From Crassostrea angulata (Eukaryota): a stretch of 64,000 nt of DNA. The stretch is taken from NCBI RefSeq assembly GCF_025612915.1, contig NC_069115.1:25855757-25919756 (forward strand), written 5' to 3'. Of this stretch, positions 20,614 to 61,460 are shown in pieces. Under the pieces are notes generated by a model. That model ran no database searches. It was not told where the DNA came from and worked only from the letters and a program-made list of their open reading frames with translations. Position numbers and translations under genes: made by a program. The stretch's first letter is position 1; every line of letters begins with the position of its first letter.

Positions 20614-23600
20614 GGATGCTTCCATTTTAATTTGAGCTTTCCTGGCGTCATAGTTTTTTTGAAGAATGTTTAAAGATTTTCTCTATATATTCCTAAGTAA
20701 AACTTGATCCCCCTACTGTGGCCCAACCCTACCCCTGGGGACCATGATTTGAACAAACTAAAATCTACACTACCTGAGGATGCTTCCATTTTAATTTGAG
20801 CTTTCCTGTTGTCATAGTTTTTTTGGAAGAAAGTCTAAAGATTTTCTCTATATTTCTAAGTAAAACTTGAACCCCATACTGTGGCCCTACTCTACATCCG
20901 GGGACCATGATTTGAACAAACTAAAATCTACACTACCTGAGGATGCTTCCATTTTAATTTCAGCTTTCCTGGCGTCATTGTGTTTCTGAAGAAAGTTTTA
21001 AGATTTTCTCTATATATTCCTATGTAAAACTTGATCCCCCTACTGTGGCCCAACCCTACCCCCGGGGACCATGATTTGAACAAACTAAAATCTACACTAC
21101 CTGAGGATGCTTCCATTTTAATTTCAGCTTTCCTGGCGCCATAGTTTTTTAGAAGAATGTTTAAAGATTTTCTCTATATATTCCTAAGTAAAACTTGATC
21201 CCCCTACTGTGGCCCAACCCTACCCCCTGGGACCATGATTTGAACAAACTAAAATCTACACTACCTGAGGATGCTTCCATTTTAATTTGAGCTTTCCTGG
21301 CGTCATAGTGTTTCAGAAGAAAGTTTACAGATTTTCTCTATATATTCCTATATAAAACTTGATCCCCCTACTGTGGCCCAACCCTACCCCCGGGGACTAT
21401 GATTTGAACAGACTAAAATCTACACTACCTGAGGATGCTTCCATTTTAATTTCAGCTTTCCTGGCGTCATAGTGTTTGAGAAGAAAGTTTACAGATTTTC
21501 TCTATATATTCCTATATAAAAATTGATCCCCCTACTGTGGCCCAAATCTACCCCCGGGGACCATGATTTGAACAAACTAAAATCTACACTACCTGAGGAT
21601 GCTTCCTTTTTAATTTGAGCTTTCCTGTCGTCATAGTTTTTTAGAAGAAAGTCTAAAGATTTTCTCTATATATTTCTATGTAAAACTTGATCCCCCTACT
21701 GTGGCCCTACCCTACCCCCGGGGACCATGATTTGAACAAACTAAAATCTTTACTACCTGAGGATGCTTCCATTTTAATTTGAGCTTTCCTGGCGTCATAG
21801 TTTTTGAGAAGAAAGTTTAAAGATTTTCTGTATATATTCCTATGTAAAACTTGATCCCCCTACTGTGGCCCTACCCTACCCCCGGGGACCATGATTTGAA
21901 CAAACTAAAATCTACACTACCTGAGGATGCTTCCATTTTAATTTGAGCTTTCCTGGCGTCATAGTTTTTGAGAAGAAATATTACAGATTTTCTCTATATA
22001 TTCCTATGTAAAACTTGATCCCCCTACTGTGGCCCTACCCTACCCCCGGGGACCATGATTTGAACAAACTAAAATCTACACTACCTGAGGATGCTTCCAT
22101 TTTAATTTGAGCTTTCCTGTTGTCATAGTTTTTTTGGAAGAAAGTCTAAAGATTTTCTCTATAAATTCCTTTGTAAAACTTGATCCCCCTACTGTGGCCC
22201 TACCCTACCCCTGGGGACCATAATTTGAACAAACTAAAATCTACACTACCTGAGGATGCTTCCATTTTAATTTGAGCTTTCCTGGGGTCATAGTTTTTGA
22301 GAAGAAAGTTTACAGATTTTCTCTATATATTCCTATGTAAAACTTGATCCCCCTACTGTGGCCCTACCCTACCCCCGGGGACCATGATTTGAACAAACTA
22401 AAATCTACACTACCTGAGGATGCTTCCATTTTAATTTGAGCTTTCCTGGCGTCATAGTTTTTTTGATGAATGTTTAAAGATTTTCTCTATATATTCCTAA
22501 GTAAAACTTGATCCCCCTACTGTGGCCCAAATCTACCCCCGGGGACCATGATTTGAACAAACTAAAATCTACACTACCTGAGGATGCTTCCATTTTAATT
22601 TGAGCTTTCCTGTCGTCATAGTTTTTTAGAAGAAAGTCTAAAGATTTTCTCTATATATTTCTATGTAAAACTTGATCCCCCTACTGTGGCCCTACCCTAC
22701 CCCCGGGGACCATGTTTTGAACAAACTTAAATCTACACTACCTGAGGATGCTTCCATTTTAATTTGAGCTTTCCTGGCGTCATAGTTTTTTTGAAGAATG
22801 TTTAAAGATTTTCTCTATATATTCCTAAGTAAAACTTGATCCCCCTACTGTGGCCCTACCCTACATCCGGGGACCATGATTTGAACAAACAAGAATATTC
22901 ACTTCCTGAGGATGCTTCCATTTTAATTTGAGCTTTCCTGGCGTCATAGTTTTTGAGAAGAAAGTTTAAAGATTTTCTCTATATATTCCTATGTAAAACT
23001 TGATCCCCCTACTGTGGCCCAACTCTACCCCCGGGGACCATGATTTGAACAAACTAAAATCTATACTACCAGAGGATACTTACATTTTAATTTGAGCTTT
23101 CCTGGCGTCATAGTTTTTGAGAAGAAAGTTGACAGATTTTCTCTATATATTCCTATGTAAAACTTGATCCCCCTACTGTGGCCCTACCCTACCCCCGGGG
23201 ACCATAATTTGAACAAACAAGAATATTCACTTTCTGATAATGCTTCCATTTTAATTTGAGCTTTCCTGGCGTCATAGTTTTTGAAAAGAAAGTTTACAGA
23301 TTTTCTCTATATATTCTTATGTAAAACTTGATCCCCCTACTGTGGCCCAACCCTACCCCCGGGGACCATGATTTGAACAAACTAAAATCTACACTACCTG
23401 AGGATGCTTCCATTTTAATTTGAGCTTTCTTGGCGTCATAGTTTTTGAGAAGAAAGTTTAAAGATTTTCTCTATACATTCCTATGTAAAAGTTGAACCCG
23501 TACTGTGGCCCAAACCTACGCCCCCGGGGACCATGATTTGAACAAACTAAAATCTTCTCTACCTGAGGATGCTTCCATTTTAATTTGAGCTTTCCTGGCG

Positions 23601-26600
23601 CCATAGTTTTTGAGAAGAAAGTTAAAAGATTTTCTCTATATATTCCTATGTAAAACTTGATCCCCCTACTGTGGCCCAACCCTACCCCCGGGGACCATGA
23701 TTTGAACAAAATAAAACCTACACTACCTGAGGATGCTTCCATTTTAATTTGAGCTTTCCTGGCGTCATTGTTTTTGAGAAGAAAGTTTACAGATTTTCTC
23801 TATATATTCCTATGTAAAACTTGATCCCCCTACTGTGCAAACTAAAATCTATGCTACCTGAGGATGCTTCCATTTTAATTTGAGCTTTCCTGGCGTCATA
23901 GTTTTTTTGAAGAATGTTTAAAGATTTTCTCTATATATTCCTAAGTAAAACTTGATCCCCCTACTGTGGCCCAACCCTACCCCTGGGGACCATGATTTGA
24001 ACAAACTAAAATCTACACTACCTGAGGATGCTTCCATTTTAATTTGAGCTTTCCTGTTGTCATAGTTTTTTTGGAAGAAAGTCTAAAGATTTTCTCTATA
24101 TTTCTAAGTAAAACTTGAACCCCATACTGTGGCCCTACTCTACATCCGGGGACCATGATTTGAACAAACTAAAATCTACACTACCTGAGGATGCTTCCAT
24201 TTTAATTTCAGCTTTCCTGGCGTCATTGTGTTTCTGAAGAAAGTTTTAAGATTTTCTCTATATATTCCTATGTAAAACTTGATCCCCCTACTGTGGCCCA
24301 ACCCTACCCCCGGGGACCATGATTTGAACAAACTAAAATCTACACTACCTGAGGATGCTTCCATTTTAATTTCAGCTTTCCTGGCGCCATAGTTTTTTAG
24401 AAGAATGTTTAAAGATTTTCTCTATATATTCCTTAGTAAAACTTGATCCCCCTACTGTGGCCCAACCCTACCCCCTGGGACCATGATTTGAACAAACTAA
24501 AATCTACACTACCTGAGGATGCTTCCATTTTAATTTGAGCTTTCCTGGCGTCATAGTGTTTCAGAAGAAAGTTTACAGATTTTCTCTATATATTCCTATA
24601 TAAAACATGATCCCCCTACTGTGGCCCAACCCTACCCCCGGGGACCATGATTTGAACAAACTAAAATCTACACTACCTGAGGATGCTTCCATTTTAATTT
24701 GAGCTTTCCTGGCGTCATAGTGTTTGAGAAGAAAGTTGACAGATTTTCTCTATATATTCCTATATAAAAATTGATCCGCCTACTGTGGCCCAAATCTACC
24801 CCCGGGGACCATGATTTGAACAAACTAAAATCTACACTACCTGAGGATGCTTCCTTTTTAATTTGAGCTTTCCTGTCGTCATAGTTTTTTAGAAGAAAGT
24901 CTAAAGATTTTCTCTATATATTTCTATGTAAAACTTGATCCCCCTACTGTGGCCCTACCCTACCCCCGGGGACCATGATTTGAACAAACTAAAATCTTTA
25001 CTACCTGAGGATGCTTCCATTTTAATTTGAGCTTTCCTGGCGTCATAGTTTTTGAGAAGAAAGTTTAAAGATTTTCTGTATATATTCCTATGTAAAACTT
25101 GATCCCCCTACTGTGGCCCAACCCTACCCCCGGGGACCATGATTTGAACAAACTAAAATCTACACTACCTGAGGATGCTTCCATTTTAATTTGAGCTTTC
25201 CTGGCGTCATAGTTTTTGAGAAGAAAGTTTACAGATTTTCTCTATATATTCCTATGTAAAACTTGATCCCCCTACTGTGGCCCTACCCTACCCCCGGGGA
25301 CCATGATTTGAACAAACTAAAATCTACACTACCTGAGGATGCTTCCATTTTAATTTGAGCTTTCCTGTTGTCATAGTTTTTTTGGAAGAAAGTCTAAAGA
25401 TTTTCTCTATAAATTCCTTTGTAAAACTTGATCCCCCTACTGTGGCCCTACCCTACCCCTGGGGACCATAATTTGAACAAACTAAAATCTACACTACCTG
25501 AGGATGCTTCCATTTTAATTTGAGCTTTCCTGGCGTCATAGTTTTTGAGAAGAAAGTTTACAGATTTTCTCTATATATTCCTATGTAAAACTTGATCCCC
25601 CTACTGTGGGCCTACCCTACCCCCGGGGACCATGATTTGAACAAACTAAAATCTATACTACCAGAGGATACTTACATTTTAATTTGAGCTTTCCTGGCGT
25701 CATAGTTTTTGAGAAGAAAGTTGACAGATTTTCTCTATATATTCCTATGTAAAACTTGATCCCCCTACTGTGGCCCTCCCCTACCCCCGGGGACCATAAT
25801 TTGAACAAACAAGAATATTCACCTTCTGATAATGCTTCCATTTTAATTTGAGCTTTCCTGGCGTCATAGTTTTTGAAAAGAAAGTTTACAGATTTTCTCT
25901 ATATATTCTTATGTAAAACTTGATCCCCCTACTGTGGCCCAACCCTACCCCCGGGGACCATGATTTGAACAAACTAAAATCTACACTACCTGAGGATGCT
26001 TCCATTTTAATTTGAGCTTTCTTGGCGTCATAGTTTTTGAGAAGAAAGTTTAAAGATTTTCTCTATACATTCCTATGTAAAAGTTGAACCCCCTACTGTG
26101 GCCCAAACCTACGCCCCCGGGGACCATGATTTGAACAAACTAAAATCTTCTCTACCTGAGGATGCTTCCATTTTAATCTGAGCTTTCCTGGCGCCATAGT
26201 TTTTGAGAAGAAAGTTTAAAGATTTTCTCTATATATTCCTATGTAAAACTTGAGCCCCTACTGTGGCCCAACCCTACCCCCGGGGACCATGATTTGAACA
26301 AAATAAAACCTACACTACCTGAGGATGCTTCCGTTTTAATTTGAGCTTTCCTGGCGTCATTGTTTTTGAGAAGAAAGTTTACAGATTTTCTCTATATATT
26401 CCTATGTAAAACTTGATCCCCCTACTGTGCAAACTAAAATCTATGCTACCTGAGGATGCTTCCATTTTAATTTGAGCTTTCCTGGCGTCATAGTTTTTTT
26501 GAAGAATGTTTAAAGATTTTCTCTATATATTCCTAAGTAAAACTTGATCCCCCTACTGTGGCCCAACCCTACCCCTGGGGACCATGATTTGAACAAACTA

Positions 26601-27000
26601 AAATCTACACTACCTGAGGATGCTTCCATTTTAATTTGAGCTTTCCTGTTGTCATAGTTTTTTTGGAAGAAAGTCTAAAGATTTTCTCTATATTTCTAAG
26701 TAAAACTTGAACCCCATACTGTGGCCCTACTCTACATCCGGGGACCATGATTTGAACAAACTAAAATCTACACTACCTGAGGATGCTTCCATTTTAATTT
26801 CAGCTTTCCTGGCGTCATAGTGTTTCTGAAGAAAGTTTTAAGATTTTCTCTATATATTCCTATGTAAAACTTGATCCCCCTACTGTGGCCCAACACTACC
26901 CCCGGGGACCATGATTTGAACAAACTAAAATCTACACTACCTGAGGATGCTTCCATTTTAATTTGAGCTTTCCTGGCGTCATAGTGTTTCAGAAGAAAGT
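20580..27000. repeat. Region of ~3.25-kb and ~2.59-kb HOR repetition (20-mer and 16-mer)
   Basis: The truncated 131-bp marker monomer sits at 20583, 23831 and 26421, giving spacings of 3248 and 2590 bp. The 62-aa pseudo-ORFs at 20928 and 24176 are identical, and the one at 26768 is nearly so. The third copy lacks one monomer relative to the second, near 24350-24540. Confidence 0.8.
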
Positions 27001-30000
27001 TTACAGATTTTCTCTATATATTCCTATATAAAACTTGATCCCCCTACTGTGGCCCAACCCTACCCCCGGAGACCATGATTTGAACAGACTAAAATCTACA
27101 CTACCTGAGGATGCTTCCATTTTAATTTGAGCTTTCCTGGCGCCATAGTTTTTGAGAAGAAAGTTTACAGATTTTCTCTATATATTCCTATATAAAACTT
27201 GATCCCCCTACTGTGGCCCAAATCTACCCCCGGGGACCATGATTTGAACAAACTAAAATCTACACTACCTGAGGATGCTTCCATTTTAATTTGAGCTTTC
27301 CTGTCGTCATAGTTTTTTAGAAGAAAGTCTAAAGATTTTCTCTATATATTTCTATGTAAAACTTGATCCCCCTACTGTGGCCCTACCCTACCCCCGGGGA
27401 CCATGATTTGAACAAACTAAAATCTTTACTACCTGAGGATGCTTCCATTTTAATTTGAGCTTTCCTGGCGTCATAGTTTTTGAGAAGAAAGTTTAAAGAT
27501 TTTTTCTATATATTCCTATGTAAAACTTGATCCCCCTACTGTGGCCCAACCCTAACCCCGGGGACCATGATTTGAACAAACTAAAATTGATACTACCTGA
27601 GGATGCTTCCATTTTAATTTGAGCTTTCTTGGCGTCATAGTTTTTGAGAAGAAAGTTTACAGATTTTCTCTATATATTCCTATGTAAAACTTGATCCCCC
27701 TACTGTGGCCCTACCCTACCCCCGGGGACCATGATTTGAACAAACTAAAATCTACACTACCTGAGGATGCTTCCATTTTAATTTGAGCTTTCCTGGCGTC
27801 ATAGTTTTTTTGATGAATGTTTAAAGATTTTCTCTATAAATTCCTTTGTAAAACTTGATCCCCCTACTGTGGCCCTACCCTACCCCTGGGGACCATGATT
27901 TGAACAAACTAAAATCTACACTACCTGAGGATGCTTCCATTTTAATTTGAGCTTTCCTGGCGTCATAGTTTTTGAGAAGAAAGTTGACAGATGTTCTCTA
28001 TATATTCCTATGTAAAACTTGATCCCCCTACTGTGGCCCAACCCTACCCCCGGGGACCATGATTTGAACAAACTAAAATCTACACTACCTGAGGATGCTT
28101 CCATTTTAATTTGAGCTTTCCTGGCGTCATAGTTTTTTTGATGAATGTTTAAAGATTTTCTCTATATATTCCTAAGTAAAACTTGATCCCCCTACTGTGG
28201 CCCAAATCTACCCCCGGGGACCATGATTTGAACAAACTAAAATCTACACTACCTGAGGATGCTTCCATTTTAATTTGAGCTTTCCTGTCGTCATAGTTTT
28301 TTAGAAGAAAGTCTAAAGATTTTCTCTATATATTTCTATGTAAAACTTAATCCCCCTACTGTGGCCCTACCCTACCCCCGGGGACCATGTTTTGAACAAA
28401 CTTAAATCTACACTACCTGAGGATGCTTCCATTTTAATTTGAGCTTTCCTGGCGTCATAGTTTTTGAGAAGAAAGTTTAAAGATTTTTTGTATATATTCC
28501 TAAGTAAAACTTGATCCCCCTACTGTGGCCCTACCCTACATCCGGGGACCATGATTTGAACAAACTAGAATCTACACTACCTGACGATAATTCCATTTTA
28601 ATTTGAGCTTTCCTTGCGTCATAGTTTTTGAGAAGAAAGTTTACAGATTTTCTCTATATATTCCTAAGTAAAACTTGATCCCCCTACTGTGGCCCAACCC
28701 TACCCCCGGGGATCATGATTTGAACAAACTAAAATCTATACTACGTGAGGATGCTTCCATTTTAATTTGAGCTTTCCTGGCGTCATAGTTTTTGAGAAGA
28801 AAGTTTAAAGATTTTCTCTATATATTCCTATGTAAAACTTGATCCCCCTACTGTGGCCCTACCCTACCCCCGGGGACCATGATTTGAACAAACTAAAATC
28901 TACACTACCTGAGGATGCTTCCATTTTAATTTCAGCTTTCCTGGCGTCATAGTTTTTTTGATGAATGTTTAAAGATTTTCTCTATATATTCCTAAGTAAA
29001 ACTTGATCCCCCTACTGTGGCCCAAACCTACCCCCGGGGACCATGATTTGAACAAACTAAAATCTACACTACCTGAGGATGCTTCCATTTTAATTTGAGC
29101 TTTCCTGTTGTCATAGTTTTTGAGAAGAAAGTCTAAAGATTTTTTCTATATATTCCTATGTAAAACTTGATCCCCCTACTGTGGCCCTACCATACCCCCG
29201 GGGACCATGATTTGAACAAACTAAAATCTACACTACCTGAGGATGCTTCCATTTTAATTTGAGCTTTCCTGGCGTCATAGTTTTTGAAAAAAGTTTAAAG
29301 ATTTTCTCTATATATTCCTATCTAAAACTTGATCCCCCTACTGTGGCCCTACCCTACCCCTGGGGACTATGATTTGAACAAACTAAAATCTACACTACCT
29401 GAGGTTGCTTCCATTTTAATTTGAGCTTTCCTGGCGTCATTGTTTTTGAGAAGAAAGTTTAGAGATTTTCTCTATATATTCCTAAGTAAAACTTGATCCC
29501 CCTACTGTGGCCCAACCCTACCCCCGGGGACCATGATTTGAACAAACTAAAATCTACACTACCTGAGGATGCTTCCATTTTAATTTGAGCTTTCCTGTCG
29601 TCATAGTTTTTTAGAAGAAAGTCTAAAGATTTTCTCTATATATTTCTATGTAAAACTTGATCCCCCCACTGTGGCCCTGCCCTACCCCCGGGGACCATGT
29701 TTTGAACAAACTAAAATCTACACTACCTGAGGATGTTTCCATTTTAATTTGAGCTTTCCTGGCGTCATAGTTTTTGAGAAGAAAGTTTAAAGATTTTTTG
29801 TATATATTCCTAAGTAAAACTTGATCCCCCTACTGTGGCCCTACCCTACATCCGGGGACCATGATTTGAACAAACAAGAATATTCACTACCTGAGGATGC
29901 TTCCATTTTAATTTGAGCTTTCCTGGCGTCATAGTTTTTGAGAAGAAAGTTTAAAGATTTTCTCTATATATTCCTATGTAAAACTTGATCCCCCTACTGT

Positions 30001-31674
30001 GGCCCAACTCTACCCCCGGGGACCATGATTTGAACAAACTAAAATCTATACTACCAGAGGATACTTACATTTTAATTTGAGCTTTCCTTGCGTCATAGTT
30101 TTTGAGAAGAAAGTTGACAGATTTTCTCTATATATTCCTATGTAAAACTTGATCCCCCTACTGTGGCCCTACCCTACCCCCGGGGACCATGATTTGAACA
30201 AACTAAAATCTACACTACCTGAGGATGCTTCCATTTTAATTTGAGCTTTCTTGGCGCCATAGTTTTTTAGAAGAATGTTTAAAGATTTTCTCTATATATT
30301 CCTATGTAAAACTTGATCCCCCTACTGTGGCTCAACCCTACCCCCGGGGACCATGATTTGAACAAACTAGAATCTACACTACCTGACGATAATTCCATTT
30401 TAATTTGAGCTTTCCTGGCGTCATAGTTTTTTTGATGAATGTTTAAAGATTTCCTCTATATATTCCTAAGTAAAACTTGATCCCCCTACTGTGGCCCAAA
30501 CCTACCCCCGGGGACCATGATTTGAACAAACTAAAATCTACACTACCTGAGGATGCTTCCATTTTAATTTGAGCTTTCCTGGCGTCATAGTTTTTGAAAA
30601 AAGTTTAAAGATTTTCTCTATATATTCCTATGTAAAACTTGATCCCCCTACTGTGGCCCAACCCTACCCCCGGGGACCATGATTTGAACAAACTAAAATC
30701 TACACTACCTGAGGATGCTTCCATTTTATTTTGAGCTTTCCTGGCGTCATAGTTTTTTTGATGAATGTTTAAAGATTTTCTCTATATATTCCTAAGTAAA
30801 ACTTGATCCCCCTACTGTGGCCCAAATCTACCCCCGGGGACCATGATTTGAACAAACTAAAATCTACACTACCTGAGGATGCTTCCATTTTAATTTGAGC
30901 TTTCCTGTCGTCATAGTTTTTTAGAAGAAAGTCTAAAGATTTTCTCTATATATTTCTATGTAAAACTTGATCCCCCTACTGTGGCCCTACCCTACCCCCG
31001 GGGACCATGTTTTGAACAAACTTAAATCTACACTACCTGAGGATGCTTCCATTTTAATTTGAGCTTTCCTGGCGTCATAGTTTTTGAAAAAAGTTTAAAG
31101 ATTTTTTGTATATATTCCTAAGTAAAACTTGATCCCCCTACTGTGGCCCTACCCTACATCCGGGGACCATGATTTGAACAAAAAAGAATATTCACTTCCT
31201 GATAATGCTTCCATTTTAATTTGAGCTTTCCTGGCGTCATAGTTTTTGAGAAGAAAGTTTAAAGATTTTCTCTATATATTCCAAAGTAAAACTTGATCCC
31301 CCTACTGTGGCCCAACTCTACCCCCGGGGACCATGATTTGAACAAACTAAAATTTATACTACCAGAGGATACTTACATTTTAATTTGAGCTTTCCTTGCG
31401 TCATAGTTTTTGAGTAGAAAGTTGACAGATTTTCTCTATATATTCCTATGTAAAACTTGATCCCCCTACTGTGGCCCTACCCTACCCCCGGGGACCATGA
31501 TTTGAACAAACTAAAATCTACACTACCTGAGGATGCTTCCATTTTAATTTGAGCTTTCTTGGCGCCATAGTTTTTTAGAAGAATGTTTAAAGATTTTCTC
31601 TATATATTCCTATGTAAAACTTGATCCCCCTACTGTGGCTCAACCCTACCCCCGGGGACCATGATTTGAACAAA

Positions 31675-31677
31675 CTA
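31675..31677. other. Left target-site duplication (CTA) of the CACTA-like insertion
   Basis: The left flank is 'gaacaaaCTA|cactactgg' and the right flank is 'ccagtagtg|CTAgaatctacac'. Uninterrupted paralogous monomers, for example at 2455-2470 and 28561-28575, read 'gaacaaactagaatctacac' with a single CTA. Confidence 0.6.
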
Positions 31678-31932
31678 CACTACTGGCTCTAAAAACCCCT
31701 GTCCGTATGAAAATCCCCTGTCTTCCCCTGTCACCCCCTGTGTTTTCACTGTCATCCCCTGTACATCCCCTGTGTGCCACTGTACAGAGCCCCTGTATAC
31801 CCTGTCATCCCCCTTGCGCCCCTGTACACAACCCCTGTGTGCCACTGTAAGCCCCTGTCACCCCCTGTACGCCCCTGTCATCCCCTGTAAGCCACTGTAT
31901 ACCCCTGTGCATGCCCCTGACATCCCCTGTAC
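31678..31932 (+). repeat. Left terminal inverted repeat, ~255 bp, containing ~20 subterminal CCCCTGTNNN direct repeats (putative transposase-binding motifs)
   Basis: Its reverse complement matches 34485-34739 almost base for base. The internal period is ~10 bp: 'cccctgtccg', 'cccctgtctt', 'cccctgtcac', 'cccctgtaca' and so on. Confidence 0.85.
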
Positions 31933-32410
31933 TGTTTTTTACTGCTCGCTAAGTAAATAAAAAGCTGTTAATTAATTCGGATTTTTAAAAATTTATATTA
32001 AGCATTCATGTTTTAGACGGTGCTTGTTTTTCTTTGCATTTCATAGAGGGCAATATTACAAACGTAAATAATTTTGTCTCAACATTGACACAAATCAAGA
32101 TATACTTGTATACCGATAAACCGCTTTTTTTATTACATGCATTAAGTTTATACAAATGACCGTGTTCTGTAATTTGTATAAAAAAAAAGAAAGAAAGAAA
32201 AATAAGTGGAGGAGTGCGTGACATCTGCAATGTTCTGTGCCCTGTATAACATGATCAGCACGTGCAGATAACCACACACCGATCGAAATGATGAAATGAT
32301 ATATTTTGAATGTTTTGACCAGTGTAATGATGCATAGAATTAAACAGCCTTAATGAAGTTCATGTAAATCGCTGATAATTGCTGTCAGTATTGTTTTTTT
32401 TATAAATCAT

Positions 32411-32441
<31 letters not shown>
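32411..32441. repeat. (GA)n microsatellite inside the transposon
   Basis: 'gagagagagagaaagagagagagagagagag'. Confidence 0.9.
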
Positions 32442-32956
32442 TTGATTTTTTTCGGAAAGGGGGATTAGACCGGTCCATTGACACTTTTAACTTCTATCAG
32501 CTAGTGTGCATTTTCCAGTTGAGTTATCTATATGCATTATTCTATAGAATTGTCCTCATGCATATACACTGTAGAGCAATGATACCGTTAATGGATGATT
32601 TAATGCGTGACTGTATGCAAATGCCGGTAACGGGGTACCATTTAATTATACACACATGTATTATCTTAAACAATGGTCTGGGTTTCGGATCAGAAAAATA
32701 TCAGGCATTTATTTTAATTTTATTTCATTTGAAAAATGAAAAATATAAAAGAGCAATATACAGTTTTAATTCATATCACTGTGCCAAATAATGTTCTGAA
32801 TTTAAAGCTCTTCAATCATTTCATGTTTGAAATTCTCAGAACTGAAAAATTGAAATTTTCAATTTCTTGTTTCTTTACTTGGCAGACTGGGAAAAAAGTT
32901 CATAAGGTGTGTTTGAACAACATATTGCATTATTGTGTAGCATTATCGAGCATCCA

Positions 32957-33232
32957 GACCTGAGAACGTGTGTGTATATACAAGTACACGTGTGTCTGTC
33001 ACCTCATTGTTATTAATCTCGCTGCCGTGCACTGCAAATTGGCAAGAAGGGCTGTATACAGTATATAGCTATTATATATTCACTGACCGACCATTCAGAT
33101 CTGAGGAACTGTGTGTATATATACGTGTACACGTGTGTCTATCATCTCTTGCTACCGTGAACTGCAAATTGTCAAGAAGGGCTGTGTACAGTAGCTATTA
33201 TATAATCACTGACCGAGTGAAATAATGTCAAC
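32957..33232. repeat. Internal tandem duplication, 2 x ~138 bp, inside the transposon
   Basis: Unit 1 is 'cagacctgagaacgtgtgtgtatatacaagtacacgtgtgtctgtcacc...tgcactgcaaattggcaagaagggctgtatacagta...cactgaccgacc'. Unit 2 is 'cagatctgaggaactgtgtgtatatatacgtgtacacgtgtgtctatcatc...tgaactgcaaattgtcaagaagggctgtgtacagta...cactgaccgagtg'. Confidence 0.8.
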
Positions 33233-33384
33233 ATCTTCTCCTTTGAAAACTGTAGCTTCAATCAGCTAGTTGTTAAGCATGTGTCTTCAAGTATTTTGAT
33301 CAATTGATCTGGTCTAGTATAAAACATTGATGTATTAAAAATCAATATGACAGCTCTAAGTTAATCTAAATAATTATAGAAAAT

Positions 33385-33477
33385 TGGTTATGAAAATTAA
33401 TTAGGATTGCATGTTTACATATTAGGAAATTAATTCCCGATTAAACTATTAGTAACTTTTCATTAAAAATCAATGCA

Positions 33478-33540
<63 letters not shown>
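33385..33540. repeat. Module A of a duplicated internal segment: conserved AT-rich flank followed by a (CT)n microsatellite
   Basis: 'aaaattaattaggattgcatgtttacatattaggaaattaattcccgattaaactat...aaaaatcaatgcaatctctc(ct)n'. It is paralogous to 33645-33770. Confidence 0.75.
33479..33539. repeat. (CT)n microsatellite, ~30 units, inside the transposon
   Basis: A perfect ct dinucleotide run spans 33481-33539. Confidence 0.95.
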
Positions 33541-33543
<3 letters not shown>

Positions 33544-33644
33544 AAACTCCTTAGGCTACATGTAAAGAACACACTAGTTCTACATTTACATATATGTTGT
33601 GTATGTTCTGACCAGGGCTGCGGAATGATAAAGAATAGGTAATA

Positions 33645-33770
33645 AAAATTAGGATTGCATTTTTACTAGGAAATTAATTCCAGGGTAAACTATATAATTA
33701 ATAAATTTAATTCAAAATCAATGCAAACTCTCTCTTTCTCTCTCTCTCTCTTTCTTTCTCTCTCTCTCCA
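33645..33770. repeat. Module B, a diverged copy of module A (same flank plus a CT-rich microsatellite)
   Basis: 'aaaaattaggattgcatttttactaggaaattaattccagggtaaactat...caaaatcaatgcaaactctctc(t/c)n'. Confidence 0.75.
33728..33769. repeat. Imperfect (CT)n/(CTTT)n microsatellite inside the transposon
   Basis: 'ctctctctttctctctctctctctttctttctctctctctc'. Confidence 0.85.
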
Positions 33771-34484
33771 ATTAGCCGGTCAGAAACGTATTGAACAAAC
33801 ATAATGAAATAATTTCTTAGGCAAATTTATATAAGCTATTGAAGCTTTATTTTGCTATGCACGGGAAATTAATAAAGGTATAACAAAGAACTTGGTTAGA
33901 AAAAAGAAGAAAGGTGTACTCTATCGTTACATAGCTGATTATAAATTCTATATTCTGACTGATTTATTGGTTTTAGTTCGCTCCTATATGTTTAGATATA
34001 TACAAAATTAAAAACCATGTGCCGCGCTTGATCTTAGTCTCTAGTGTGTTGTTTATTACCAAGAATCATATGATTCAAAGGCTTAAGATATTCATAAGTA
34101 AAGTGTACATATATCTGTAGACAATTCAAAAAAATGAATAATTCACTCTAGGTTGTATTCTTATGTCTTTTTTTTCAAACATTAGGGAGTAGCGATGTTC
34201 CCGAGCTCCAAAGGACAACATGCACTGAGGCTTGAACACCTAATATAAAAAATAATTCCCGCCTTCACCTGAGGTTTACCACCAGGTGAATCTAAAATCT
34301 TTTTTTGTTAGCATGATTATTAAAGTATCAATAAATTATCAACTAAAACATGTGATTTCTAAAATTACGATAACAGTGTGTCTTGTGATTCGGCGCTGTT
34401 GAGTGCAAATATAGCTCAAAATATAACACATGTGATTTCAATAGCTGAATTAAGAAAATGATATTAAAAAAAAAGTCAAAAGCC

Positions 34485-34739
34485 GTACAGGGGATGTCAG
34501 GGGCATGCACAGGGGTATACAGTGGCTTACAGGGGATGACAGGGGCGTACAGGGGGTGACAGGGGCTTACAGTAGCACACAGGGGTTGTGTACAGGGGCG
34601 CACAGGGTATGACAGGGTATACAGGGGCTCTGTACAGTGGCACACAGGGGATGTACAGGGGATGACAGTGAAAACACAGGGGGTGACAGGGGAAGACAGG
34701 GGATTTTCATACGGACAGGGGTTTTTAGAGCCAGTAGTG
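34485..34739 (-). repeat. Right terminal inverted repeat, ~255 bp, with the subterminal CAGGGG(A/T/G) motifs in reverse complement
   Basis: It is the reverse complement of 31678-31932, with only a few mismatches. One example is 'ccccttgcg' on the left versus 'accctgtgcg' on the right. Confidence 0.85.
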
Positions 34740-34742
34740 CTA
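34740..34742. other. Right target-site duplication (CTA)
   Basis: See the left TSD. A 3-bp TSD is characteristic of CACTA/EnSpm/CMC elements. Confidence 0.6.
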
Positions 34743-37700
34743 GAATCTACACTACCTGACGATAATTCCATTTTAATTTGAGCTTTCCTTGCGTCATAGT
34801 TTTTGAGAAGAAAGTTTACAGATTTTCCCTATATATTCCTAAGTAAAACTTGATCCCCCTACTGTGGCCCAACCCTACCCCCGGGGATCATGATTTGAAC
34901 AAACTAAAATCTATACTACGCGAGGATGCTTCCATTTTAATTTGAGCTTTCCTGGCGTCATAGTTTTTGAGAAGAAAGTTTAAAGATTTTCTCTATATAT
35001 TCCTATGTAAAACTTGATCCCCCTACTGTGGCCCTACCCTACCCCCGGGGACCATGATTTGAACAAACTAAAATCTACACTACCTGAGGATGCTTCCATT
35101 TTAATTTGAGCTTTCCTGGCGTCATAGTTTTTTTGATGAATGTTTAAAGATTTTCTCTATATATTCCTAAGTAAAACTTGATCCCCCTACTAGTACTGTG
35201 GCCCAAACCTACCCCCGGGGACCATGATTTGAACAAACTAAAATCTACACTACCTGAGGATGCTTCCATTTTAATTTGAGCTTTCCTGGCGTCATAGTTT
35301 TTGAAAAAAGTTTAAAGATTTTCTCAATATATTCCTATGTAAAACTTGATCCCCCTACTGTGGCCCAACCCTACCCCCGGGGACCATGATTTGAACAAAC
35401 TAAAATCTACACTACCTGAGGATGCTTCCATTTTAATTTGAGCTTTCCTAGCGTCATAGTTTTTTTGATGAATGTTTAAAGATTTTCTCTATATATTCCT
35501 AAGTAAAACTTGATCCCCCTACTGTGGCCCAAATCTACCCCCGGGGACCATGATTTGAACAAACTAAAATCTACACTACCTGAGGATGCTTCCATTTTAA
35601 TTTGAGCTTTCCTGTCGTCATAGTTTTTTAGAAGAAAGTCTAAAGATTTTCTCTATATATTTCTATGTAAAACTTAATCCCCCTACTGTGGCCCTACCCT
35701 ACCCCCGGGGACCATGTTTTGAACAAACTTAAATCTACACTACCTGAGGATGCTTCCATTTTAATTTGAGCTTTCCTGGCGTCATAGTTTTTGAGAAGAA
35801 AGTTTAAAGATTTTTTGTATATATTCCTAAGTAAAACTTGATCCCCCTACTGTGGCCCTACCCTACATCCGGGGACCATGATTTGAACAAACTAGAATCT
35901 ACACTACCTGACGATAATTCCATTTTAATTTGAGCTTTCCTTGCGTCATAGTTTTTGAGAAGAAAGTTTACAGATTTTCTCTATATATTCCTATGTAAAA
36001 CTTGATCCCCCTACTGTGGCCCAACCCTACCCCCGGGGACCATGATTTGAACAAACTAAAATCTATACTACCTGAGGATGCTTCCATTTTAATTTGAGCT
36101 TTCCTGGCGTCATAGTTTTTGAGAAGAAAGTTTAAAGATTTTCTCTATATATTCCTATGTAAAACTTGATCCCCCTACTGTGGCCCTACCCTACCCCCCG
36201 GGGACCATAATTTGAACAAACTAAAATCTACACTACCTGAGGATGCTTCCATTTTAATTTGAGCTTTCCTGGCGTCATAGTTTTTTTGATGAATGTTTAA
36301 AGATTTTCTCTATATATTCCTAAGTAAAACTTGATCCCCCTACTGTGGCCCAAACCTACCCCCGGGGACCATGATTTGAACAAACCAAAATCTACACTAC
36401 CTGAGGATGCTTCCATTTTAATTTGAGCTTTCCTGTTGTCATAGTTTTTGAGAAGAAAGTCTAAAGATTTTTTCTATATATTCCTATGTAAAACTTAATC
36501 CCCCTACTGTGGCCCTACCCTACCCCCGGGGACCATGATTTGAACAAACTAAAATCTACACTACCTGAGGATGCTTCCATTTTAATTTGAGCTTTCCTTG
36601 CGTCATAGTTTTTGAAAAAAGTTTAAAGATTTTCTCTATATATTCCTATGTAAAACTTGATCCCCCTACTGTGGCCCTACCCTACCCCTGGGGACTATGA
36701 TTTGAACAAACTAAAATCTACACTACCTGAGGTTGCTTCCATTTTAATTTGAGCTTTCCTGGCGTCATTGTTTTTGAGAAGAAAGTTTAGAGATTTTCTC
36801 TATATATTCCTATGTAAAACTTGATCCCCCTACTGTGGCCCAACCCTACCCCCGGGGACCATGATTTGAACAAACTAAAATCTACACTACCTGAGGATGC
36901 TTCCATTTTAATTTGAGCTTTCCTGTCGTCATAGTTTTTTAGAAGAAAGTCTAAAGATTTTCTCTATATATTTCTATGTAAAACTTGATCCCCCCACTGT
37001 GGCCCTGCCCTACCCCCGGGGACCATGTTTTGAACAAACTAAAATCTACACTACCTGAGGATGTTTCCATTTTAATTTGAGCTTTCCTGGCGTCATAGTT
37101 TTTGAGAAGAAAGTTTAAAGATTTTTTGTATATATTCCTAAATAAAACTTGATCCCCCTACTGTGGCCCTACCCTACATCCGGGGACCATGATTTGAACA
37201 AACAAGAATATTCACTACCTGAGGATGCTTCCATTTTAATTTGAGCTTTCCTGGCGTCATAGTTTTTGAGAAGAAAGTTTGAAGATTTTCTGTATATATT
37301 CTTAAGTAAAAATTGATCCCCCTACTGTGGCCCAACCCTACCCCCGGGGACCATGATTTGAACAAACTAAAATCTACACTACCTGAGGATGCTTTCATTT
37401 TAATTTGAGCTTTCCTGGCGTCATAGTTTTTGAGAAGAAAGTTGACAGATTTTCTCTATATATTCCTATGTAAAACTTGATCCCCCTACTGTGGCCCTAC
37501 CCTACCCCCGGGGACCATGATTTGAACAAACTAAAATCTACACTACCTGAGGATGCTTCCATTTTAATTTGAGCTTTCTTGGCGCCATAGTTTTTTAGAA
37601 GAAAGTTTAAAGATTTTCTCTATATATTCCTATGTAAAACTTGATCCCCCTACTGTGGCTCAACCCTACCCCCGGGGACCATGATTTGAACAAACTAGAA

Positions 37701-40700
37701 TCTACACTACCTGACGATAATTCCATTTTAATTTGAGCTTTCCTTGCGTCATAGTTTTTGAGAAGAAAGTTTACAGATTTTCTCTATATATTCCTAAGTA
37801 AAACTTGATCCCCCTACTGTGGCCCAACCCTACCCCCGGGGACCATGATTTGAACAAACTAAAATCTATACTACCTGAGGATGCTTCCATTTTAATTTGA
37901 GCTTTCCTGGCGTCATAGTTTTTGAGAAGAAAGTTTAAAGATTTTCTCTATATATTCCTATGTAAAACTTGATCCCCCTACTGTGGCCCTACCCTACCCC
38001 CGGGGACCATGATTTGAACAAACTAAAATCTACACTACCTGAGGATGCTTCCATTTTAATTTGAGCTTTCCTGGCGTCATAGTTTTTTTGATGAATGTTT
38101 AAAGATTTCCTCTATATATTCCTAAGTAAAACTTGATCCCCCTACTGTGGCCCAAACCTACCCCCCGGGACCATGATTTGAACAAACTAAAATCTACACT
38201 ACCTGAGGATGCTTCCATTTTAATTTGAGCTTTCCTGGCGTCATAGTTTTTGAAAAAAGTTTAAAGATTTTCTCTATATATTCCTATGTAAAACTTGATC
38301 CCCCTACTGTGGCCCAACCCTACCCCCGGGGACCATGATTTGAACAAACTAAAATCTACACTACCTGAGGATGCTTCCATTTTAATTTGAGCTTTCCTGG
38401 CGTCATAGTTTTTTTCATGAATGTTTAAAGATTTTCTCTTTATATTCCTAAGTAAAACTTGATCCCCCTACTGTGGCCCAAATCTACCCCCGGGGACCAT
38501 GATTTGAACAAACTAAAATCTACACTACCTGAGGATGCTTCCATTTTAATTTGAGCTTTCCTGTCGTCATAGTTTTTTAGAAGAAAGTCTAAAGATTTTC
38601 TCTATATATTTCTATGTAAAACTTGATCCCCCTACTGTGGCCCTACCCTACCCCCGGGGACCATGTTTTGAACAAACTTAAATCTACACTACCTGAGGAT
38701 GCTTCCATTTTAATTTGAGCTTTCCTGGCGTCATAGTTTTTGAGAAGAAAGTTTAAAGATTTTTTGTATATATTCCTAAGTAAAACTTGATCCCCCTACT
38801 GTGGCCCTACCCTACATCCGGGGACCATGATTTGAACAAACAAGAATATTCACTTCCTGAGGATGCTTCCATTTTAATTTGAGCTTTCCTGGCGTCATAG
38901 TTTTTGAGAAGAAAGTTTAAAGATTTTCTCTATATATTCCTATGTAAAACTTGATCCCCTTACTGTGGCCCAACTCTACCCCCGGGGACCATGATTTGAA
39001 CAAACTAAAATCTATACTACCAGAGGATACTTACATTTTAATTTGAGCTTTCCTGGCGTCATAGTTTTTGAGAAGAAAGTTGACAGATTTTCTCTATATA
39101 TTCCTATGTAAAACTTGATCCCCCTACTGTGGCCCTACCCTACCCCCGGGGACCATAATTTGAACAAACAAGAATATTCACTTTCTGATAATGCTTCCAT
39201 TTTAATTTGAGCTTTCCTGGCGTCATAGTTTTTGAAAAGAAAGTTTACAGATTTTCTCTATATATTCTTATGTAAAACTTGATCCCCCTACTGTGGCCCA
39301 ACCCTACCCCCGGGGACCATGATTTGAACAAACTAAAATCTACACTACCTGAGGATGCTTCCATTTTAATTTGAGCTTTCTTGGCGTCATAGTTTTTGAG
39401 AAGAAAGTTTAAAGATTTTCTCTATACATTCCTATGTAAAAGTTGAACCCGTACTGTGGCCCAAACCTACGCCCCCGGGGACCATGATTTGAACAAACTA
39501 AAATCTTCTCTACCTGAGGATGCTTCCATTTTAATTTGAGCTTTCCTGGCGCCATAGTTTTTGAGAAGAAAGTTTAAAGATTTTCTCTATATATTCCTAT
39601 GTAAAACTTGATCCCCCTACTGTGGCCCAACCCTACCCCCGGGGACCATGATTTGAACAAAATAAAACCTACACTACCTGAGGATGCTTCCATTTTAATT
39701 TGAGCTTTCCTGGCGTCATTGTTTTTGAGAAGAAAGTTTACAGATTTTCTCTATATATTCCTATGTAAAACTTGATCCCCCTACTGTGCAAACTAAAATC
39801 TATGCTACCTGAGGATGCTTCCATTTTAATTTGAGCTTTCCTGGCGTCATAATTTTTTTTAAGAATGTTTAAAGATTTTCTCTATATATTCCTAAGTAAA
39901 ACTTGATCCCCCTACTGTGGCCCAACCCTACCCCTGGGGACCATGATTTGAACAAACTAAAATCTACACTACCTGAGGATGCTTCCATTTTAATTTGAGC
40001 TTTCCTGTTGTCATAGTTTTTTTGGAAGAAAGTCTAAAGATTTTCTCTATATTTCTAAGTAAAACTTGAACCCCATACTGTGGCCCTACTCTACATCCGG
40101 GGACCATGTTTTGAACAAACTTAAATCTACACTACCTGAGGATTCTTCCATTTTAATTTCAGCTTTACTGGCGTCATTGTGTTTCTGAAGAAAGTTTTAA
40201 GATTTTCTGTATATATTCCTATGTAAAACTTGATCCCCCTACTGTGGCCCAACCCTACCCCCGGGGACCATGATTTGAACAAACTAAAATCTACACTACC
40301 TGAGGATGCTTCCATTTTAATTTCAGCTTTCCTGGCGCCATAGTTTTTTAGAAGAATGTTTAAAGATTTTCTCTATATATTCCTAAGTAAAACTTGATCC
40401 CCCTACTGTGGCCCAAATCTACCCCCTTGGACCATGATTTGAACAAACTAAAATCTACACTACCTGAGGATGCTTCCATTTTAATTTGAGCTTTCCTGGC
40501 GTCATAGTGTTTCAGAAGAAAGTTTACAGATTTTCTCTATATATTCCTATATAAAACTTGATCCCCCTACTGTGGCCCAACCCTACCCCCGGGGACCATG
40601 ATTTGAACAGACTAAAATCTACACTACCTGAGGATGCTTCCATTTTAATTTCAGCTTTCCTGGCGTCATAGTGTTTGAGAAGAAAGTTTACAGATTTTCT

Positions 40701-43700
40701 CTATATATTCCTATATAAAAATTGATCCCCCTACTGTGGCCAAAATCTACCCCCGGGGACCATGATTTGAACAAACTAAAATCTACACTACCTGAGGATG
40801 CTTCCATTTTAATTTGAGCTTTCCTGTCGTCATAGTTTTTTAGAAGAAAGTCTAAAGATTTTCTCTATATATTTCTATGTAAAACTTGATCCCCCTACTG
40901 TGGCCCTACCCTACCCCCGGGGACCATGATTTGAACAAACTAAAATCTTTACTACCTGAGGATGCTTCCATTTTAATTTGAGCTTTCCTGGCGTCATAGT
41001 TTTTGAGAAGAAAGTTTAAAGATTTTCTGTATATATTCCTATGTAAAACTTGATCCCCCTACTGTGGCCCAACCCTACCCCCGGGGACCATGATTTGAAC
41101 AAACTAAAATTGATACTACCTCAGGATACTTCCATTTTAATTTGAGCTTTCCTGGCGTCATAGTTTTTGAGAAGAAAGTTTACAGATTTTCTCTATATAT
41201 TCCTATGTAAAACTTGATCCCCCTACTGTGGCCCTACCCTACCCCCGGGGACCATGATTTGAACAAACTAAAATCTACACTACCTGAGGATGCTTCCATT
41301 TTAATTTGAGCTTTCCTGTTGTCATAGTTTTTTTGGAAGAAAGTCTAAAGATTTTCTCTATAAATTCCTTTGTAAAACTTGATCCCCCTACTGTGGCCCT
41401 ACCCTACCCCTGGGGACCATGATTTGAACAAACTAAAATCTACACTACCTGAGGATGCTTCCATTTTAATTTGAGCTTTCCTGGCGTCATAGTTTTTGAG
41501 AAGAAAGTTTACAGATTTTCTCTATATATTCCTATGTAAAACTTGATCCCCCTACTGTGGCCCTACCCTACCCCCGGGGACCATGATTTGAACAAACTAA
41601 AATCTATACTACCAGAGGATACTTACATTTTAATTTGAGCTTTCCTGGCGTCATAGTTTTTGAGAAGAAAGTTTACAGATTTTCTCTATATATTCCTATG
41701 TAAAACTTGATCCCCCTACTGTGGCCCTACCCTACCCCCGGGGGACCATAATTTGAACAAACAAGAATATTCACTTTCTGATAATGCTTCCATTTTAATT
41801 TGAGCTTTCCTGGCGTCATAGTTTTTGAAAACAAAGTTTACAGATTTTCTCTATATATTCTTATGTAAAACTTGATCCCCCTACTGTGGCCCAACCCTAC
41901 CCCCGGGGACCATGATTTGAACAAACTAAAATCTACACTACCTGAGGATGCTTCCATTTTAATTTGAGCTTTCTTGGCGTCATAGTTTTTGAGAAGAAAG
42001 TTTAAAGATTTTCTCTATACATTCCTATGTAAAAGTTGAACCCCCTACTGTGGCCCAAACCTACACCCCCGGGGACTATGATTTGAACAAACTAAAATCT
42101 TCTCTACCTGAGGATGCTTCCATTTTAATTTGAGCTTTCCTGGCGCCATAGTTTTTGAGAAGAAAGTTTAAAGATTTTCTCTATATATTCCTATGTAAAA
42201 CTTGATCCCCCTACTGTGGCCCAACCCTACCCCCGGGGACCATGATTTGAACAAAATAAAACCTACACTACCTGAGGATGCTTCCGTTTTAATTTGAGCT
42301 TTCCTGGCGTCATTGTTTTTGAGAAGAAAGTTTACAGATTTTCTCTATATATTCCTATGTAAAACTTGATCCCCCTACTGTGCAAACTAAAATCTATGCT
42401 ACCTGAGGATGCTTCCATTTTAATTTGAGCTTTCCTGGCGTCATAGTTTTTTTGAAGAATGTTTAAAGATTTTCTCTATATATTCCTAAGTAAAACTTGA
42501 TCCCCCTACTGTGGCCCAACCCTACCCCTGGGGACCATGATTTGAACAAACTAAAATCTACACTACCTGAGGATGCTTCCATTTTAATTTGAGCTTTCCT
42601 GTTGTCATAGTTTTTTTGGAAGAAAGTCTAAAGATTTTCTTTATATTTCTAAGTAAAACTTGAACCCCATACTGTGGCCCTACTCTACATCCGGGGACCA
42701 TGATTTGAACAAACTAAAATCTACACTACCTGAGGATGCTTCCATTTTAATTTCAGCTTTCCTGGCGCCATAGTTTTTTAAAGAATGTTTAAAGACTTTC
42801 TCTATATATTCCTAAGTAAAACTTGATCCCCCTACTGTGGCCCAACCCTACCCCCTGGGACTATGATTTGAACAAACTAAAATCTACACTACCTGAGGAT
42901 GCTTCCATTTTAATTTGAGCTTTCCTGGCGTTATAGTGTTTCAGAAGAAAGTTTACAGATTTTCTCTATATATTCCAATATTAATCTTGATCCCCCTACT
43001 GTGGCCCAACCCTACCCCCGGGGACCATGATTTGAACAGACTAAAATCTACACTACCTGAGGATGCTTCCATTTTAATTTGAGCTTTCCTGGCGTCATAG
43101 TGTTTGAGAAGAAAGTTTACAGATTTTCTCTATATATTCCTATATAAAACTTGATCCCCCTACTGTGGCCCAACCCTACCCCTGGGGACCATGATTTGAA
43201 CAAACTAAAATCTACACTACCTGAGGATGCTTCCATTTTAATTTCAGCTTTCCTGGCGCCATAGTTTTTTTGGAAGAAAGTCTAAAGATTTTCTTCATAT
43301 TTCTAAGTAAAACTTGAACCCCATACTGTGGCCCTACTCTACATCCGGGGACCATGATTTGAACAAACTAAAATCTACACTACCTGAGGATGCTTCCATT
43401 TTAATTTCAGCTTTCCTGGCGCCATAGTTTTTTAAAGAATGTTTAAAGATTTTCTCTATATATTCCTAAGTAAAACTTGATCCCCCTACTGTGGCCCAAC
43501 CCTACCCCCTGGGACTATGATTTGAACAAACTAAAATCTACACTACCTGAGGATGCTTCCATTTTAATTTGAGCTTTCCTGGCGTTATAGTGTTTCAGAA
43601 GAAAGTTTACAGATTTTCTCTATATATTCCAATATAAAACTTGATCCCCATACTGTGGCCCAACCCTACCCCCGGGGACCATGATTTGAACAGACTAAAA

Positions 43701-60200: not shown

Positions 60201-61460
60201 TTGTTTTTGAGAAGAAAGTTTACAGATTTTCTCTATATATTCCTATGTAAAACTTGATCCCCCTGCTGTGGCCCAACTCTACCCCTGGGGACCATGATTT
60301 GAACAAACTAAAATCTATACTACCAGAGGTTACTTCCATTTTAATTTGAGCTTTCCTGGCGTCATAGTTTTTGAGAAGAAAGTTGACAGATTTTCTCTAT
60401 ATATTCCTATGTAAAACTTGATCCCCCTACTGTGGCCCAACCCTACCCCCGGGGACCATGATTTGAACAAACTAAAATCAACACTACCTGAGGATGCTTC
60501 CATTTTAATTTCAGCTTTCCTGGCGTCATAGTTTTTTTGATGAATGTTTAAAGATTTTCTCTATATATTCCTAAGTAAAACTTGATCCCCCTACTGTGGC
60601 CCAAACCTACCCCCGGGGACCATGATTTGAACAAACTAAAATCTACACTACCTGAGGATGCTTCAATTTTAATTTGAGCTTTCCTGTCGTCATAGTTTTT
60701 TAGAAGAAAGTCTAAAGATTTTCTCTATATATTCCTAAGTAAAACTTGATCCCCCTACTGTGGCCCTACCCTACCCCTGGGGACTAGGATTTGAACAAAC
60801 TTAAATCTACACTACCTGAGGATGCTTCCATTTTAATTTGAGCTTTCCTGGCGTCATAGTTTTTGAGAAGAAAGTTTAAAGATTTTTTGTATATATTCCT
60901 AAGTAAAACTTGATCCCCCTACTGTGGCCCTACCGTACATCCGGGGACCATGATTTGAACAAACAAGAATATTCACTTCCTGAGGATGCTTCCATTTGAA
61001 TTTGAGATTTCCTGGCGTCATAGTTTTTGAGAAGAAAGTTTAAAGATTTTCTCTATATATTCCTATGTAAAACTTGATCCCCCTACTGTGGCCCAACTCT
61101 ACCCCCGGGGACCATGATTTGAACAAACTAAAATCTATACTACCAGAGGATACTTCCATTTTAATTTGAGCTTTCCTGGCGTCATAGTTTTTGAAAAGAA
61201 AGTTGACAGATTTTCTCTATATATTCCTATGTAAAACTTGATCCCCCTACTGTGGCCCAACCCTACCCCCGGGGACCATAATTTGAACAAACAAGAATAT
61301 TCACTTTCTGATAATGCTTCCATTTTAATTTGAGCTTTCCTGGCGTCATAGTTTTTGAAAAGAAAGTTTACAGATTTTCTCTATATATTCTTATGTAAAA
61401 CTTGATCCCCCTACTGTGGCCCAACCCTACCCCCGGGGACCAGGATTTGAACAAACTAAA
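57255..61460. repeat. Copy B of the second large duplication
   Basis: See copy A. Confidence 0.75.

Follow-up and report, generated by a model that had tools for sequence, protein, structure and literature searches.

The paired CCCCTGT arrays in this stretch of oyster DNA are best read, and with moderate confidence, as belonging to the inverted ends of a non-autonomous transposon of the CMC group, a cut-and-paste element of 3,062 bp inserted in a Cg170/CgiSat01a satellite array, with the repeats serving as candidate multivalent binding sites. The element runs from 5'-CACTACTGG to CCAGTAGTG-3' (that is, CACTAC...GTAGTG) and interrupts the satellite at a single point.

An insertion in an oyster satellite array

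The window (the whole 64-kb stretch of DNA that was analysed) consists of one tandem array with a 164-bp period throughout (TRF), a GC content of ~0.385 and a constant strand skew. Alignment to a supplementary satellite library showed that its monomer matches the published CgiSat01a consensus. At least 370 monomers of this CgiSat01a/Cg170 array are present (~61 kb of satellite), and the array runs off both ends of the window; for comparison, the longest standalone array in the assembly of PMC8268682 contains 232 monomers (~40 kb). A short, 131-bp variant of the monomer, starting with CAAAATAAAACCTACACT, is found repeatedly to the left and right of the insertion, its copies lying at irregular distances of ~2.1-7.7 kb, which suggests a multi-kb higher-order or segmental duplication within the satellite. 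Cg170 is the main centromere-associated satellite of the Pacific oyster, and the long array of the window may be part of a centromeric block.

Within the 64 kb, this array is broken only once, by the 3,062-bp insertion (Table 1). When the element and one CTA are deleted, a gapless CgiSat01a monomer, ACAAACTAGAATC, is restored across the junction; the resulting empty site reads ...GATTTGAACAAACTAGAATCTACACT... and keeps the satellite register (328 = 2 x 164). Because the empty site aligns gaplessly and in register, the 3-bp target-site duplication is demonstrated rather than assumed. In full, the ends read 5'-CACTACTGGCTCTAAAAA... at the left and ...TTTTTAGAGCCAGTAGTG-3' at the right. The outermost 18 nt are identical in the two arms, contain no repeat unit, and are the presumed site of end recognition and cleavage.

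The left inverted end lies exactly where an earlier note on this DNA had placed it, and the two 255-bp ends are identical at 251 positions. Weaker inverted similarity continues to 31943, extending the repeat pair to 266 nt at 97% identity. Together, the inverted ends account for 510 of the 3,062 bp (17%). Folding of the C-rich strand revealed no hairpin within a single inverted end.

Table 1. Positions of the element, its parts and its host satellite in the window, and of arrays in environmental contigs (L-numbered loci, positions in the respective contig)
Feature	Position	Strand	Remarks
Host CgiSat01a (Cg170/HindIII) array, left flank	1..31677	+	TRF 164-bp period; match to Crassostrea gigas CgiSat01a consensus
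131-bp monomer variant, left of element	12787-13048, 20459-20720, 23707-23968, 26299-26560		
Target-site duplication, left copy	31675..31677	+	CTA; flank reading
Left terminal inverted repeat	31678..31932	+	255 bp; 251/255 identity to right arm, no indels
Unique tip CACTACTGGCTCTAAAAA	31678..31695	+	18 nt, CACTA-type; identical in both arms, without repeat unit
Left subterminal array	31696..31930	+	20 CTGT-anchored units, 15 exact CCCCTGT; all direct
Spurious Pro/Cys-rich ORF	31772-31960	+	62 aa, no Pfam match
Decayed left-array units	~31810 and ~31914		
G-quadruplex motif, left arm	31852-31885	-	Four GGGG runs, 6-nt loops; second G3 motif also in this arm
AT-rich non-coding interior	31933..34484	.	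2,552 bp; ORF, Pfam and Rfam scans
Spurious Pro/Cys-rich ORF	34343-34771	-	142 aa, no Pfam match
Right terminal inverted repeat	34485..34739	-	255 bp; inverted repeat pair; tip ...CCAGTAGTG at 34739
G-quadruplex motif, right arm	34532-34565	+	Four GGGG runs, 6-nt loops; second G3 motif also in this arm
Target-site duplication, right copy	34740..34742	+	CTA; flank reading
Host satellite array, right flank	34743..64000	+	Same array resumes
131-bp monomer variant, right of element	39658-39919, 42252-42513, 48285-48546, 50714-50975, 56266-56527, 58367-58628		
Environmental family A, examples	L026 1060; L045 554; L100 1126; L009 58; L078 195		
Environmental family B	L036 3400-5420; L073 250-1450; L094; L018		L094 on minus strand

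Repeat units of the inverted ends

The repeat unit has the core CC(C/A)CTGT, and CCCCTGT occurs in one orientation per arm, reading inward. When units are anchored on CTGT, the right arm yields 21 of them, including 15 exact CCCCTGT on the minus strand, against the 20 of the left arm; both counts include the variant cores CCACTGT, TCACTGT and ACCCTGT. One or two further decayed units (CCCCTGA, CCCCCTTG) bring the total to ~22 per end, in agreement with the ~20 iterations previously reported. All 30 exact copies of CCCCTGT in the window sit in the two arms, the other 61 kb being free of them, and dinucleotide-preserving shuffles of an arm contained 1.4 copies on average and never more than 6, compared with the 15 observed.

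Of the 19 intervals between successive units in the left arm, 11 measure 10 bp, as do 13 of the 20 in the right arm; the remainder are 9, 11 or 13 bp long, apart from a few wider gaps (19-22 bp). By TRF, each arm has a 10-bp period and 20.9 copies. The ~10-bp spacing described in the earlier note is thus borne out, and two of its other statements hold in part. The motif had been said to run the full 255 bp of each end: it does span nucleotides 19-253, but the first 18 nt are unique and unit 1 is followed by a 19-bp gap. The spacing had also been called roughly helical, which is true on average. The mean unit pitch is ~10.4 bp, and unit positions are most coherent in phase at a period of 10.4-10.5 bp (R = 0.82, versus 0.19 at 10.0 bp). 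However, against a helix of 10.5 bp per turn, each unit in the exact 10-bp runs drifts by ~17 degrees, amounting to ~137 degrees over eight steps. The mean pitch agrees with helical phasing without being strong evidence for it, because the 10.4-bp mean is made up of exact 10-bp runs and occasional 11- or 13-bp steps; strict helical phasing was rejected as strong evidence, since the mean pitch alone fits.

Conservation is distributed very unevenly along the unit. Among the 19 alignable units of the left arm, the three bases upstream of the CTGT anchor are C in 17, 19 and 15 cases, and the three spacer bases downstream of it carry only 0.1-0.5 bits, which is near random. The non-anchored CCC positions of this arm match the consensus in 51 of 57 cases and the spacer positions in 21 of 57 (Fisher p = 5.6e-9), and the same contrast appears in the right arm (Fisher p 2e-8). 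This pattern fits constraint on the 7-bp core. The two arms carry their units in identical order with zero indels, and three of the four differences between them fall in one unit. This goes part of the way towards answering the earlier note's question of a locus-specific minisatellite expansion: expansions that took place independently in each arm after insertion would not yield such agreement, so the array predates the insertion and did not expand locally afterwards.

An array of this kind could nonetheless be neutral. A short unit with G/C asymmetry might have expanded by slippage or unequal exchange in one end and been copied to the other. The minisatellite so formed would have extended the inverted ends, in the manner of foldback elements, and would be tolerated although no protein needs it. 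We regard this origin as somewhat unlikely, although several features speak for it: within the array, TRF detects two higher-order periods (23 and 42 bp), and blocks of several units recur; one left-arm unit has decayed to CCCCCTTG, its right-arm counterpart being the intact ACCCTGTG; and 10-bp CCCCTGTNNN arrays are common elsewhere, either plain (loci L077 and L049 of the environmental scan below) or as a foldback-like palindrome (L036), which marks the motif as prone to expansion. Recent expansion, however, would be expected to yield uniform units such as those of L077 and L049, whereas neighbouring units of the oyster array almost never share a spacer. An old neutral array, in turn, would have lost cores and spacers alike, whereas here the cores are kept (p ~6e-9). 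Moreover, a plain minisatellite should show even divergence and local variation in length; the oyster array shows a contrast between core and spacer, and its arms differ by no indel.

Coding capacity and superfamily

The longest ORF lying wholly within the interior of the element encodes 95 aa, and stop codons are dense in all six frames. Rfam scans of the interior found nothing, and the best Pfam hit (E 0.03), which falls far short of the curated cut-offs, is not credible. Because its interior is non-coding, the element cannot encode its own transposase and is non-autonomous. The ORFs rich in proline and cysteine at 31772 and 34343, already suspected of being spurious products of the repeats, are both present, and neither matches Pfam. 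A search with the 85 aa encoded by the inverted repeat returned no match in a set of 5.8 billion proteins, and no recorded sequence was identical to the 142-aa ORF.

The interior is itself partly duplicated (32947-33063 / 33088-33193, 130-141 bp; and 33420-33520 / 33664-33768). A (GA)n tract at 32411-32441 is inverted relative to (TC)n tracts at 33479-33539 and 33728-33768, and the sequence adjoining the latter is duplicated as well, in the form AAAATCAATGCAA + (TC)n, with the copies 248 bp apart.

Judged by its ends and duplication alone, the element is probably a non-autonomous CMC transposon of the CACTA/EnSpm or Chapaev type. The likeness to plant En/Spm proposed in the earlier note, along with the identification of the arrays as transposon ends, finds support in the CACTAC...GTAGTG termini and the 3-bp duplication. 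The defining features of CACTA elements are CACTA termini, subterminal repeats in direct and inverted orientation that cover several hundred bp, and a target duplication of 3 bp (PMC8978399). Members of the Chapaev/CMC group have invariable 5'-CAC...GTG-3' ends and duplicate 3-4 bp (PMC4079192), and the target duplications of EnSpm elements measure 2-4 bp (PMC7165386). The oyster element exhibits the 5'-CAC(TA)...(TA)GTG-3' termini of CMC transposons, a duplication (CTA) within the 2-4 bp range and equal to the 3 bp of CACTA, and closely spaced short subterminal repeats, 20-21 per end and direct only. Animal relatives of the 'TRC/Mirage' type start with CCC and duplicate 2 bp (PMC1636069; PMC4298943), which groups the element with CACTA and Chapaev instead. 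Every mollusc examined contains CMC elements, and Crassostrea is polymorphic for CMC-EnSpm insertions.

The same architecture could instead belong to AcademX or, with less likelihood, to PIF/Harbinger; taken together, we consider these assignments unlikely. An autonomous AcademX element would encode an Academ transposase with an XPG nuclease. AcademX elements produce 3-bp duplications in animals, almost all Academ families start with a pyrimidine and end with a purine, and in some the inverted ends exceed 100 bp (PMC7165386). The 3-bp duplication and C...G ends of the oyster element agree with this description, but these features are not specific to AcademX. PIF/Harbinger elements also duplicate 3 bp, according to a passage in PMC2213677, and the oyster duplication has this length. 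In addition, a curated bivalve library lists 100 Academ and 58 PIF-Harbinger families compared with 2 CMC families. On the other hand, CACTAC...GTAGTG contains the motif that gives CACTA its name and conforms to the CAC...GTG ends that are invariable in Chapaev/CMC. No match to the termini or the array was present in the supplementary text of PMC7165386, the paper on Academ, where CACTACTGG appears only twice, inside unrelated sequence. Neither was the element matched in the curated bivalve TE library, nor were strings of the satellite and tip sequences matched in full-text papers. A TWA target and non-CAC termini are typical of PIF/Harbinger; the element, with its CTA duplication and CAC ends, would depart from this pattern. 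The putative CMC transposon may well be catalogued already in Repbase or Dfam. It is a tidy case of a known design and no new kind of element.

Candidate role of the array and comparison with known systems

If the element is a CMC transposon, its CACTAC tip would be recognized and cut by a cognate DDE transposase with the Transposase_21-type catalytic domain of that superfamily, whose gene would lie elsewhere in the genome. The array behind the tip could then act as a multivalent landing pad on which small sequence-specific DNA-binding domains load side by side, these domains being supplied either by the N-terminus of the transposase or by a TnpA-like accessory protein. Such loading would raise the local protein concentration, mark both ends as cognate, and thereby aid end pairing ahead of cleavage. 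In En/Spm, TnpA binds 12-bp subterminal motifs, and in Ac, the transposase binds subterminal AAACGG repeats, many copies of which lie within ~250 bp of each end. Protein binding to the oyster array is suggested by its units, which all point one way, keep the 7-bp core and leave the 3-nt spacers free. The exclusively direct orientation counts against the reading of the element as a whole, since classical CACTA subterminal motifs mix direct and inverted copies (PMC8978399). Tandem repeats that provide inverted ends with additional transposase sites have precedents: Galileo has THAP sites in the tandem repeats of its long inverted ends, where more repeats are proposed, in the relevant passages of PMC4079207, to raise the efficiency of transposition, and the inverted ends of Tm1 from root-knot nematodes consist largely of 14-bp tandem repeats (PMC3169594). 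The subterminal repeats of Ac/Ds are also mentioned in a passage of PMC3260210.

Alternatively, the array might act through DNA structure, with G-quadruplexes on the G-rich strand and i-motifs on the C-rich strand influencing end pairing, replication or chromatin. On the G-rich strand, whose 3' end lies at the element tip, GGGG recurs every 10 nt. Runs of at least three G number 18 per arm, two canonical G3+N1-7 motifs, one of them GGGGATGACAGGGGCGTACAGGGGGTGACAGGGG, are also present in each, and the strand asymmetry is mirrored at the two ends. Nevertheless, canonical motifs number only two per arm, the conserved core also takes in CTGT/ACAG beyond the G run, a part dispensable for a quadruplex, and the fold of the C-rich strand is nothing special (z = -0.37); a structural role is thus very unlikely in our estimation. 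We see virtually no chance that, instead of a transposon, the feature is an assembly artefact or the product of a local inverted duplication within the satellite. Nothing but the repetitive context speaks for this; against it stand the exact boundaries, the 3-bp duplication, the empty site restored in register, ends and interior that are unlike the satellite, and the absence of CCCCTGT from the other 61 kb.

Similar arrays were sought in environmental and prokaryotic sequence. With three phased cores as the query, more than 120 loci were retrieved from metagenome contigs and 98 from prokaryote genomes; as these were picked by the CCCCTGT motif itself, they form a biased sample and serve as a lead only. 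They were rejected as homologues of the oyster element, because BLAST similarity lies within the repeat only and does not reach the tip or the interior. No second copy of the element and no autonomous partner emerged from these loci, from the viral contigs or from the protein searches above. In viral contigs, the exact terminal 25-mer had 0 matches, and the phased motif was found at 7 loci. The one inspected, L219 on a phage-like IMG/VR contig, has a short, apparently intergenic, iteron-like cluster of GTGCACCCCTGT at ~6300-6450; this short repeat is unrelated, and L219 was rejected as a relative.

In several groups of contigs, the 10-bp array starts right after a conserved unique leader and the outer flanks differ, an arrangement that looks like the ends of mobile elements. 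The environmental leaders do not start with CAC. No transposase gene was identified beside these arrays, where the elements run off their contigs; the long ORFs of L094 lie in flanking DNA. Family A (34 contigs among L004-L120) has a ~30-nt leader, ACAAGGG(G/T)TTCTGCCTGTGCGCTTCGCTGCA, followed directly by (CCCCTGTGTA)n. Its outer flanks are unrelated between contigs, several copies abut TTTAGGG/CCCTAAA telomere-like repeats, and in four contigs (L013, L056, L079, L120) it lies within a ~200-bp tandem unit alongside (GGAAATACTCG)n. Family A looks like a mobile or subtelomeric element of some protist or alga. In family B, the leader ...GGTTAGTACCTTATGTAAGACTACGTATAATGTCCCGAGAATATGGCTGTAGCTCTAGTATA gives way to hundreds of bp of alternating ACCCCTGTAA / ACCCTTGTAT units, and in L036, the two arms (~1.1 kb and ~0.8 kb) meet almost head to head as a classic foldback. 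Other leaders occur in families C (L008, L081, L104, L108) and D (L011, L101), and L077 is a plain minisatellite adjoining CCCTAAA telomere-like repeats.

It is conceivable, though a long shot, that the CCCCTGT 10-bp array is a portable end module found across transposon lineages and not the quirk of one oyster family. The idea arises because, in environmental eukaryote contigs, arrays with this core and pitch directly follow at least four conserved leaders that are unrelated to one another; one of these families is present on 34 contigs with differing outer flanks, and a single locus forms a complete foldback. Such a module, whether chosen by a conserved DNA-binding protein or by a shared quadruplex/i-motif property, would represent a convergent or exchanged cis-element for end pairing.

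To return to the oyster element as a probable CMC transposon, oyster genomics gains a cleanly bounded, CACTA/CMC-type non-autonomous element within a long Cg170 array. Its ends offer an unusually simple candidate binding code, comprising a 7-bp core, free 3-nt spacers and ~22 copies. They also carry a warning for annotation, as ends of this type yield phantom ORFs rich in proline and cysteine. The general view of transposons is unchanged, since textbooks already describe both the subterminal repeats of CACTA elements and the tandem repeats of foldback ends.

Like CACTA/En-Spm elements, the oyster element has CACTA-type termini, duplicates 3 bp of its target, and carries short subterminal repeats over a few hundred bp at both ends (PMC8978399). 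It differs from En/Spm in that its repeats lie inside a 255-bp, 98%-identical inverted end, are all direct, and share a 7-bp core at a regular ~10-bp pitch; moreover, its host is an animal, and it lacks genes for a transposase or a TnpA-like protein. In En/Spm, the inverted ends are short, and the motifs are irregularly spaced and present in both orientations. The first six terminal bases, CACTAC, are presumably the same as those of the 13-bp inverted end of En/Spm. With Chapaev (CMC), the element shares 5'-CAC...GTG-3' termini and a duplication of 3-4 bp (PMC4079192). Chapaev3 inserts at TWA, between A and T (PMC4079192), whereas the oyster element, which encodes no transposase by which to place it, duplicates CTA.

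Foldback elements (FB, Galileo and Tetris of Drosophila; Tm1 of nematodes) resemble it in their long inverted ends of short tandem units behind a unique tip and in their non-coding middle. They belong, however, to the Mutator or P superfamilies, with duplications of 7-10 bp (8-10 bp for Mutator/FB) and inverted ends that make up most of the element, in contrast to the 17%, 3 bp and CACTA termini seen here. Ac/Ds elements (hAT) are similar in carrying many copies of a very short motif near each end. Elements of the hAT type have 8-bp duplications and 11-bp inverted ends, and their motifs occur in both orientations at irregular spacing. Finally, the environmental CCCCTGTNNN minisatellites (L036, L049, L077) share the core, the 10-bp period and, in several families, the placement of the array behind a unique leader; their units are uniform (CCCCTGTGTA) or form 20-bp alternating pairs, whereas those of the oyster element combine a fixed core with free spacers.
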